The translations under genes were made by a program, and so were the position numbers. 64,000 bases of DNA from positions 24,800,001 through 24,864,000 of the forward strand of contig CM097883.1 in assembly GCA_044892505.1 (NCBI GenBank), given 5' to 3'. This stretch comes from Schmidtea nova (lineage: Eukaryota). Shown piece by piece: positions 28,362 through 30,407 of this stretch (the stretch's first letter is position 1; the number at the start of each line of letters is the position of its first letter). The notes under the pieces are model-generated. The model saw only the letters and a program-made list of their open reading frames with translations. It searched no databases and had not been told where the DNA came from.

Positions 28362-28562
28362 GTGAAGGACATATATCGTGGCGAAGTCCAGACGAGGGAT
28401 ATATGTGTAGTGTGGAATATCAGTGTAGTTGAATTGGGTGACGACGAGGGTAAGTATATGTCAACCTTAACGCGTATGAGTTCGGGGATAGCGAACATAG
28501 TATCAAGGGGTAAGGACAATCAATACCTTTTATCATATGTGTTTAGCCACCAAGGGAGATGA
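28362..28562 (+). CDS. Cassette A ORF-C (unknown small protein)
   Basis: DDEGK motif shared with fragments at 19167 and 33350. Confidence 0.45.
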   Translation: MKDIYRGEVQTRDICVVWNISVVELGDDEGKYMSTLTRMSSGIANIVSRGKDNQYLLSYVFSHQGR

Positions 28563-29208
28563 TAAATAAATCACAGGCATTGAGGACTGATAAAATGATG
28601 AACCCCAGTGAGTAAGTGCCACAGGAAATCACGAGAATTACCCGAAACGGTATGATCATTGCTGGTTAGATGGGGAAGTGATTGAGAACGACTGATGAGA
28701 TTGAATGCAATAAATAGTATTACCAATAAATAAAAAACGGTTGTGGTTGAGTGGTTGAACCTGATTGATGAGAATTACGTACAATAACGATATGATTAAT
28801 AAATGCAACAAATCGTGCGTAGCTGAACCGTTGAAATAAAAAGCGGAGTACACTAGTTCCAAAGCTATCGTCAAATACGACCCACGTTAAGTCACCAACA
28901 ATGATCCGGTAAAATACAGAATGAACCACTCAGACCTACAAAATTTCATAAATAAGACGGGTGGGTCGACTAATATAAATAGGTCCATTCCATGGTAGAA
29001 TCCGTAGATTAAATCAACCATCTTCCATAGAACGCCATGGTGAAACTGGAGAGTTACCAAAGGAAGCCGATGGTCGCGTACCCTGTAAAGATAGAGAATA
29101 CCATCATCCGTAGGAAACGGCGCACCCGCTCCGTCCTCAAATATCAGAGGGGAGAATGAAGCACCCCGAAAAGTTGTCGAAGTATCGCGTCGACACCTAC
29201 GACGATGG

Positions 29209-29655
29209 ATGAGGACCCATATGAGTTTAGCCGCTAGCATCCCAGCTTGCGCGTTTGAACTACAGTTGCGGTGGGAAGGAGATACCGATTGGGTGTCCTC
29301 CTCGGATCCTGCCGAGCCAAGAACCGACCGATGGTTCTACCAATTCCTCGATGAACAGAATCAACCCCGTTGGGTGCTGAGCACAGAATCAATGTCAGGA
29401 AGAGCATTCCATCAACTCGGGTACATGCTGTTAGACAGGCCTCGGTGTCGCTACACTGAGGAAGTCTTCGTCTATTCGAACGCTCCAGGAAACGTCTCGA
29501 CGGAACCCTATCCGGAGCCCAAGGATCTTCGTCTCTGGGAAGTGTTTATCTACCGAGATAAACTGAGTTGGAACCCAGCCCCAGAGATGTATTTGGAAAG
29601 CGGAATTCGCCGCGACGAGAATCCTGCCGATCAGGAATTGCGAGCCTTCAGTTGA
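29209..29655 (+). CDS. Cassette A ORF-A (unknown protein; frame open back to ~29095)
   Basis: 148-aa GC-rich ORF; protein-level homologue at 8150-8490. Confidence 0.6.
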   Translation: MRTHMSLAASIPACAFELQLRWEGDTDWVSSSDPAEPRTDRWFYQFLDEQNQPRWVLSTESMSGRAFHQLGYMLLDRPRCRYTEEVFVYSNAPGNVSTEPYPEPKDLRLWEVFIYRDKLSWNPAPEMYLESGIRRDENPADQELRAFS

Positions 29656-29807
29656 TCGACACAGCCCGAGAAAGAATGTTTGTTGTAAATATAAAAATAA
29701 ATGTATTTGTGTGAGAATGGTCTTGTTTTGGTTTCGAGCGTATGAGAATATCATGATGAGAAAGTATAGTTGTTTGATAACGAAATGATGACTGAAAGAC
29801 CAGACAA

Positions 29808-30407
29808 ATGACATATACCCTAATTGATGTTACGTTTCTAGACATGAACGAAACCAAAGATAGATACTACAAGCAAGAGGCGCGGGAACATAAGGCGCGA
29901 TCACGAGTTTTGGAAAATCGTTTGAGACAGTTGAATGGCGAACATCAAAGGGTCAAGACCACGTGGTTTAACCCTGAGCGGGTTAAGTCCATCCTGCAAG
30001 CCAGATACAGAGCCGAACAAGTAGCCGACGAACAGGCTAGAGAGGTTGCAGCACTGAAATTAGAATTATCCAATTATCTGAGAGTGGCAACCCAAGAATT
30101 CATCACCGAGCAGTTACGGCCAGTGATCCGAGCGAGCACTTTTAACAGATGGGTGGATTCGATATCGATAACTACGACTACCCAAACCGAAACTGAGGCA
30201 ATCGCAGCCACGACCATCGAGCCGACAACTAGAACTCCAGAGGGCTCAAAAAGGACAAAACGAAGGAATCGCTTAGGAGCGAAAAAGCGTAGAGAGCGCC
30301 GAGCATATGCCGATCGCCTAGGCATAGAAGTGGATTTGCTCAGTGGACTCTCTGAACAAGAACTCCTAAATGTGATTAGACCTTCAGTGTTATTAAACTA
30401 TAAATAA
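29808..30407 (+). CDS. Cassette A ORF-B: coiled coil + conserved helical motif + Arg/Lys-rich tail
   Basis: 199-aa intact ORF. WFxP and ELxxxLRxxTxxFIxxxLxxxIRxxT(F/Y) are shared with copies at 34630-35240(-) and 8892-9225(+). Confidence 0.7.
   Translation: MTYTLIDVTFLDMNETKDRYYKQEAREHKARSRVLENRLRQLNGEHQRVKTTWFNPERVKSILQARYRAEQVADEQAREVAALKLELSNYLRVATQEFITEQLRPVIRASTFNRWVDSISITTTTQTETEAIAATTIEPTTRTPEGSKRTKRRNRLGAKKRRERRAYADRLGIEVDLLSGLSEQELLNVIRPSVLLNYK

Follow-up and report, generated by a model that had tools for sequence, protein, structure and literature searches.

The window analysed here, a stretch of 64,000 nucleotides of AT-rich, repeat-filled animal DNA from Schmidtea nova, is best read as carrying a solo LTR of a giant env-bearing Ty3/gypsy element, in which two genes (A and B) are alternatively spliced to a leader and likely encode the element's own regulators, a reading to which we assign a probability of roughly 0.8. 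An earlier note on this DNA had described three conserved small ORFs (C, A and B), the arrangement of which it likened to a compact viral or retroelement accessory region. We find two genes only, both inside the LTR itself, and "ORF-C" corresponds to an intron (Table 1).

The window copy (27561-30793, family F1) is a complete solo LTR of a ~29.4-kb Burro-like Ty3/gypsy element, and neither a primer-binding site nor a polypurine tract was found beside it, no interior being present. When the A protein was searched against the animal's own genome, the best 150 of 3,024 candidates were scored, i.e., best-scoring copies only, which are biased to intact ones. Among these, 149 copies other than the window's matched at 74–87% identity, eight of them with an internal stop. 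Many of the matches formed same-strand pairs ~26 kb apart, and all five pairs examined were direct repeats of 3.25–3.32 kb, 99.05–100% identical, around an interior of 20–23 kb, with A and B present inside each repeat. These LTRs start with TG and end with CA, a PBS-like site (possibly of the Pro type) follows the 5' copy and a purine tract precedes the 3' copy, all four full elements read have 4-bp target-site duplications (TSDs), and the total length is 29.4–29.5 kb in four of the five elements and 26.8 kb in one. A further 32 LTR loci comprised 16 solo LTRs with a TSD, eight 3' LTRs, five 5' LTRs, one with both and two unresolved. The TSD CTTG is common to three of the four full F1 elements read (a spliced element described below has CTTT), and those of the solo LTRs are varied and AT-rich, so the repeated CTTG could reflect either a target preference or chance.

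Table 1. Features of the solo LTR and related sequences, in window coordinates.
Feature	Position	Strand	Remarks
Decayed A+B remnant, old family F3	7959..9213	+	Profile/tblastn matches
Target-site duplication, 4 bp	left copy 27557..27560, right copy 30794-30797	+	Identical flanks
Solo LTR, family F1	27561..30793	+	3,233 bp, TG...CA; termini match LTR pairs of full elements
Inverted CCAAT box (27973-27981) and TATA box (28003-28014)	27973..28014	+	Likely LTR promoter
AATAAA overlapping 5' splice donor	28099..28108	+	Leader exon ends 28106; used by two F1 genomic copies of spliced RNA
Intron GT..AG holding "ORF-C"	28107..29030	+	Non-coding; equivalent stretch precisely absent in L019 and L225/L226
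ORF A	29037..29655	+	211 aa in intact copies; acceptor ends at 29030; window copy frameshifted near 29140-29170
AATAAA after ORF A, then GT-rich stretch	29696..29701	+	38/52 copies
ORF B	29844..30407	+	Intact, 187 aa from ATG after acceptor (29841); AATAAA overlaps stop
B features in window copy	TQT at 30180; Arg-rich helix from 30261; Leu-rich tail	+	From predicted structure and sequence
Older solo LTR, sister family F2	34115..37249	-	3,135 bp; flanks match 3/4 bases; no A
F1-like internal fragment	40681..43729	+	TRAF/MATH ORF and coiled-coil ORF; 84-85% DNA identity to full element

The F1 interior contains a stop-free frame of ~5,090 codons across two adjoining stretches, to which a Pfam scan assigned CCHC knuckles, a fusion glycoprotein, protease, reverse transcriptase (RT), RNase H, integrase and ankyrin repeats. 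The gene order is gag-env-pol in one frame, with protease, RT, RNase H and integrase following one another and the fusion glycoprotein placed between CCHC and protease, and additional ORFs encode RING, TRAF/MATH (downstream of pol) and coiled-coil proteins. The earlier suggestion that the ORFs might belong to a Burro element was thus right about the kind of element, which is Burro-like, but not about their place, since they lie within the LTR rather than in an internal accessory region. In F1 and F4 the polyprotein frame stays open, and is conserved, over 120–150 codons upstream of the first ATG (L038:3474-3840; L153), which suggests either a non-ATG start or one supplied by splicing. At the 3' end of the LTR (last 200 nt), contig depth was 10–100x that of the gene region, which, contig depth being a poor measure, suggests that many more families share the LTR 3' end. 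Within the window, the F1-like internal fragment runs at 43485 straight into the final 245 bp of an LTR, without GT..AG at this junction, which has the look of a microhomology deletion.

The remaining window sequence includes transposase remnants of hAT (14310-16012, 48918-50237, 53839-55082), MULE (23349-24005, 47340-47597) and piggyBac (40138-40695) type, a 16/25-bp tandem array between 168-bp direct repeats that are 99% identical (20292-21524), and two near-perfect palindromes of ~260 bp (22632-22892 and 52844-53098). A 170-codon frame at 55583-56095 with a weak AP1AR match (E 6e-5, below the cut-off) is possibly a host exon.

A and B are genes under purifying selection. Across 53 LTR copies, pairwise dN/dS at dS above 0.05 was 0.18–0.28 for A and 0.08–0.18 for B (pairs not being independent), as the earlier note had supposed, and values of ~1 were not seen. 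In the closest pairs the ratio climbs to 0.51 (A) and 0.35 (B), which is expected because post-insertion decay dominates there. Divergence concentrates at the third codon position (0.17/0.13/0.35 for A and 0.14/0.08/0.38 for B, 34 LTR copies against one reference), and frame-shifting and in-frame indels in these 34 copies number 39 and 12 in A, and six and three in B. Full-length A was found in 48 and full-length B (187–199 aa) in 40 of the 53 copies, fractions that are inflated, the copies having been drawn from the best-scoring matches. The window copy itself had been called nearly intact, which is true of B but not of A, the frame of which changes near 29140-29170. In the same interval its closest relatives among the 34 copies switch subfamily (from 95–98% to 88–93%), suggesting that the window copy is a recombinant LTR.

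By the same measures "ORF-C" does not behave as a gene. In 34 LTR copies compared with one reference, the region diverges at 0.27/0.28/0.27 by codon position, i.e., without periodicity, and has accumulated 650 frame-shifting vs. 151 in-frame indels. No sense frame longer than 81 codons was found there in 35 copies, and none is held in common; the DD[EQ]G[KR] string is present in only 6 of the 35. The proposed multi-copy family of conserved ORFs was therefore confirmed for A and B, from matches both in the window and across the genome, and not for C. The pieces at 19167 and 33350 that had been listed as homologues of C give no alignment with the C region (best blastn E 0.5), have just nine residues (E 0.058) plus a weak second match in common, and look like chance; the five-residue motif, which was picked after being seen, occurs three times in the window vs. 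zero to one time in 60 shuffles. By eye, 18967-19215, which holds the 19167 motif, is a presumed mariner-like transposase fragment, likened to mariner by a motif and without a Pfam match. An antisense ORF of 243 codons overlies the region in one copy (L028 LTR nt 792-1523, minus strand), with antisense frames of 135–180 codons in four others; most copies do not share it.

Direct evidence of splicing comes from three genomic copies made from spliced RNA, two with a donor-to-A join and one with a donor-to-B join. One is a solo LTR of 2,287 bp with a TSD (L019), which precisely lacks the GT..AG stretch from the donor to the A acceptor. Another is a near-full element of a different F1 subfamily (L225/L226), with a TSD and with the donor-to-A join in each of its LTRs; these are alike at all but 2 of 2,285 nt, and unspliced relatives of the element carry GT and AG at the same join points. 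In the third, an element of the sister family F4, both LTRs have the donor fused to the acceptor of B, with A removed. Because these copies join the donor to the A or B acceptor, "ORF-C" is a non-coding intron, which spans from the leader donor to the acceptor of A, and a short leader exon is spliced alternatively to A or to B as its 3' exon. Both splices thus occur, the B join being known from F4, as a junction search of the genome for a donor-to-B copy in F1 gave no match. In the junction searches, one of 35 matches spans the L019 join, a second search gave four (three spliced LTRs of two insertions and one unrelated) with one control match, and the F4 search gave four (two spliced and two with a mutated donor). 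The spliced copies further show that RNA, once spliced, can run past both genes and be reverse-transcribed, and, since spliced elements without the intron or without A inserted successfully, neither is needed in cis. Contigs of four sequencing runs of unknown kind contained no joint at the donor and are uninformative on expression.

The signals around these joins are widely kept. Among copies with a located ATG, a YAG directly precedes that of A in 50 of 51 and that of B in 44 of 44, and a loose acceptor pattern was found at 8 of 10 ORF starts tested vs. 90 of 1,314 background ATGs. Of 35 F1 LTRs, 26 have the strict donor motif and nine lack it, and AATAAA follows B in 49 of 52 copies and is missing after A in 14 of 52.

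Homologues of A and B had been reported at two other places in the window, and within-window tblastn recovered both: B at 34824-35132 on the minus strand (E 3e-12), and, at 8–9 kb, B at 9022-9216 (E 2e-6) together with A at 8158-8444 in three frames (E 2e-4, or 1e-13 with a profile). Judged by sequence, these diverged copies are members of separate element families and not, as had been thought, of one old family. The first lies in the F2 solo LTR, where the B homologue begins at 35225 and has a premature stop near 34881. F2 B is under selection (dN/dS 0.09–0.16 in 10 of 10 pairs), and no A-like stretch was found in six F2 LTRs (best E 0.1). Behind one LTR of this family come a PBS, RING, gag, env and pol; no matching 3' LTR for this element was found within 40 kb. 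The F2 RT is 49% identical to that of F1. Within the 10 kb that precede the window, an F2-type env/pol remnant (L155) has an ORF of 440–480 codons after the integrase, with no Pfam match.

The copy at 8–9 kb represents an old family (F3) for which neither LTR ends nor an interior were found, and its A+B remnant was probably part of an LTR. F4 is a young family, with an LTR pair 99.8% identical that contains A and B. Compared with F1, its RT is 92.5% identical, A only ~20% and B ~25%, and the LTRs are unalignable except at their termini (L082, L152-L154), which may reflect very fast divergence of the LTR genes or an LTR swap. The distant relationship was nonetheless detectable, a profile of A built without F4 rows matching F4 A at E 1e-20 (best of 999 shuffles, 0.038). 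B is kept in all four families (F1–F4), and A is apparently an optional helper, lost in F2.

The predicted structure of B (pLDDT 77) shows a long coiled coil with a WFxPE kink, a helix, a disordered linker starting from TQT, an Arg-rich helix and a Leu-rich helix. The basic helix (residues ~140–157) is conserved in all four families, and the Leu-rich tail, as judged by eye, in F1, F3 and F4, the F2 tail being acidic instead. An Arg-rich motif combined with a Leu-rich signal is the pattern described for Rev, Rex, Rec and Rem (PMC2661877, excerpt). Because B has this pattern, and because a 29-kb RNA retaining its intron would need an export route, we tentatively suggest, at rather less than even odds, that B could be a Rev/Rem-like oligomeric RNA-binding adaptor which exports or protects the intron-retaining genome. 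About an even chance goes to B being another nuclear regulator (a transactivator, or an antagonist of piRNA or chromatin silencing) or a dynein-linked component of the particle. A basic helix with a coiled coil would fit many nuclear proteins, SMEDWI-2 is reported to repress BURRO1 (PMC8532177, excerpt), and TQT follows a helix and opens a disordered linker; such roles would, however, leave aside both the Rev/Rex/Rem pattern and the export route presumably needed by an intron-retaining RNA with a 5' donor.

The TQT motif is found in 39 of 40 F1 B proteins and in 16 of 25 decayed F3 loci, is replaced by the variants TNT and CGT in families F2 and F4, and sits in a disordered stretch near the coiled coil (linker residues 113–138, pLDDT under 50). 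Its F3 context is often K/R-E-T-Q-T-D/E, which is close to the LC8 motif (PMC3078936, excerpt), and B is possibly dimerised by LC8 via TQT. Many peptides with a TQT are not LC8 binders (PMC6607443, excerpt). The predicted complex of a B segment with the host LC8 dimer, made without an alignment, scored 0.13, which speaks neither for nor against binding. In the host genome, LC8 dynein light chain genes number ~20, are near-identical and without introns, and lie in clusters (G000 C2, 5–45 Mb).

For A, the model (pLDDT 55) suggests a basic N-terminus and a low-confidence small alpha/beta core. Its best fold match among 48,161 chains reached Z 3.4, with no viral match at E 0.001, which is too weak to call the fold new, and the B model matched no viral fold. 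Against 1.84 billion representative sequences A had no true homologue, the single match (a WD40 protein, E 8e-4) being rejected as noise. Among candidates of near lengths only, searches with B alone, a B alignment and an A alignment yielded 0 of 125, 0 of 3,092 and 0 of 976, respectively. Neither protein had a Pfam match; PDB sequences gave nothing for A and only four designed peptides for B (E above 0.2), and none of the pattern matches in viral (0/62) or metagenome (0/105) contigs was B. A and B are thus two protein families without a relative in the searches run.

The position of the genes relative to the promoter bears on how they would be expressed. A CCAAT box and a TATA box occur at LTR nt ~370–410 in 34 of 35 F1 LTRs, and also in F2 and F4, the LTRs of which otherwise barely align, and on these signals A and B are probably downstream of the promoter, in R/U5. 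An unrelated LTR-like repeat (L224) has the same layout of CCAAT, TATA and AATAAA-donor. LTR genes are otherwise familiar from U3, where MMTV sag and HIV nef are located, and if this applied here, with the promoter near the LTR 3' end, only the 3' LTR would yield A and B, on spliced RNAs started upstream, and solo LTRs would be silent for both. In 27 of 35 F1 LTRs the final 90 nt do contain a second TATAAA (with none seen at the F2 or F4 ends read), the last 200 nt are the best-conserved part of the LTR, and the spliced genomic copies fit either layout. We nevertheless consider a U3 location unlikely: the 3' TATA leaves only ~20 nt for R plus U5, CCAAT, TATA and donor occur in this order at nt ~350–600 in three families with otherwise unalignable LTRs, and the stretch from TATA to donor is leader-sized.

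Still less probable is that A and B are split from a polycistronic RNA by spliced-leader trans-splicing instead of cis-splicing. This process exists in flatworms, and the arrangement is operon-like, with an acceptor before each ATG and a poly(A) signal ~150 nt upstream of the next acceptor, but each of the three genomic copies shows the donor of the LTR itself fused to an A or B acceptor, which is cis; trans-splicing may occur in addition. That the ORFs form a three-member virus-like or host family independent of any LTR, or are open by chance in a young repeat, is hardly credible, for although no homologue was found outside this genome, LTR pairs and TSDs surround gag-env-pol, dN/dS is far below 1 at dS above 1, and C behaves as non-coding.

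With the genes in R/U5, transcription would start ~30 nt after the TATA at LTR nt ~400 and place A and B at the 5' end of the genomic RNA. The leader-A and leader-B mRNAs would end at the AATAAA behind each gene, and the full-length RNA would mostly retain the intron and have to read through the poly(A) signals of the 5' LTR. Minus-strand strong-stop DNA would be ~2.9 kb, and any solo LTR with intact signals could make A and B mRNAs alone. It is doubtful that the boldest form of this model holds in full, i.e., a two-gene spliced unit in R/U5 with a ~2.9-kb strong-stop, B as an independently evolved Rev, and thousands of self-contained solo LTRs acting in trans on full elements and host cells.

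LTRs, and solo LTRs above all, are usually treated as non-coding promoters, and those described here contain two selected genes with an intron, acceptors and poly(A) signals. As several element families and thousands of candidate copies are involved, solo LTRs may be protein-making loci ignored by annotation. If the genes follow the start site, the strong-stop DNA would be very long and up to three poly(A) signals would have to be passed in the 5' LTR, and the making and export of a 29-kb intron-retaining RNA would become directly testable in an RNAi-tractable animal.

Burro was reportedly first described by Grohme et al. in 2018. Burro-like gag-env-pol errantiviruses are already published; new here are the linking of a solo LTR to full elements, selection in four families, the refutation of "ORF-C" and both splices. 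In the literature searched we found no description of spliced genes inside Burro-like LTRs, and the original Burro paper, figures and supplements, or Repbase may show the ORFs. Burro/GYPSM1 of planarians is ~30 kb long (interior up to 25 kb), with a single frame of ~5,000 residues that encodes a CCHC gag, an env between gag and protease, RT, RNase H, integrase and ankyrin, and with MATH/TRAF and RING cargo, accessory ORFs and very many copies (PMC6431247, excerpt). Compared by description only, F1 shares the giant size, the single ~5,000-codon frame, the env placement, ankyrin, MATH/TRAF and RING, but differs in that TRAF/MATH is a separate ORF downstream of pol. The BIR, Bcl-2, ubiquitin-like and dUTPase domains of Burro, which not every member has, had no Pfam match in the F1 frames scanned (which included part of the 5' ORFs), and F2 has a weak Bcl-2 match (E 6.5e-4). 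The F1 LTR has genes, an intron and splicing, whereas the excerpted Burro text (PMC6431247) mentions none of these within the LTR.

Burro-like elements also appear in PMC8532177 and PMC11410931 (excerpts). Among Platyhelminthes GAG-ENV-POL errantiviruses, Smed_errantivirus_1-6 have a fusogen of gB/Monjiviricetes type (PMC13524379, excerpt), and share the gag-env-pol order and a fusogen with F1 and F2; by eye, the F2 env closely resembles Smed_errantivirus_1 and the F1 env resembles nos. 5 and 6. In the excerpted part of that source, the rows for these six elements are without LTR coordinates or primer tRNA, and the survey left out LTRs more than 14 kb apart, so that LTR genes were beyond its scope (PMC13524379).

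With the complex retroviruses MMTV (Sag, Rem) and HIV (Nef, Rev), the F1 element shares an ORF in the LTR. Unlike the MMTV and HIV LTR ORFs, which are in U3 and read from the 3' LTR, F1 has two whole genes and an intron apparently downstream of the promoter. A further common feature is spliced accessory genes from a 5' donor (PMC2661877, excerpt). A and B have no sequence or fold similarity to the MMTV and HIV proteins, for which the Arg-rich plus Leu-rich pattern serves only as a model for B. The foamy virus LTR, like that of F1, has its major splice donor adjoining a poly(A) signal, and its 5' poly(A) site is suppressed by U1 at the LTR donor, a possible model here (PMC3694450, excerpt). The foamy virus donor is, however, upstream of the poly(A) signal (PMC3694450), whereas in F1 the AATAAA overlaps or precedes the donor and two genes then follow.
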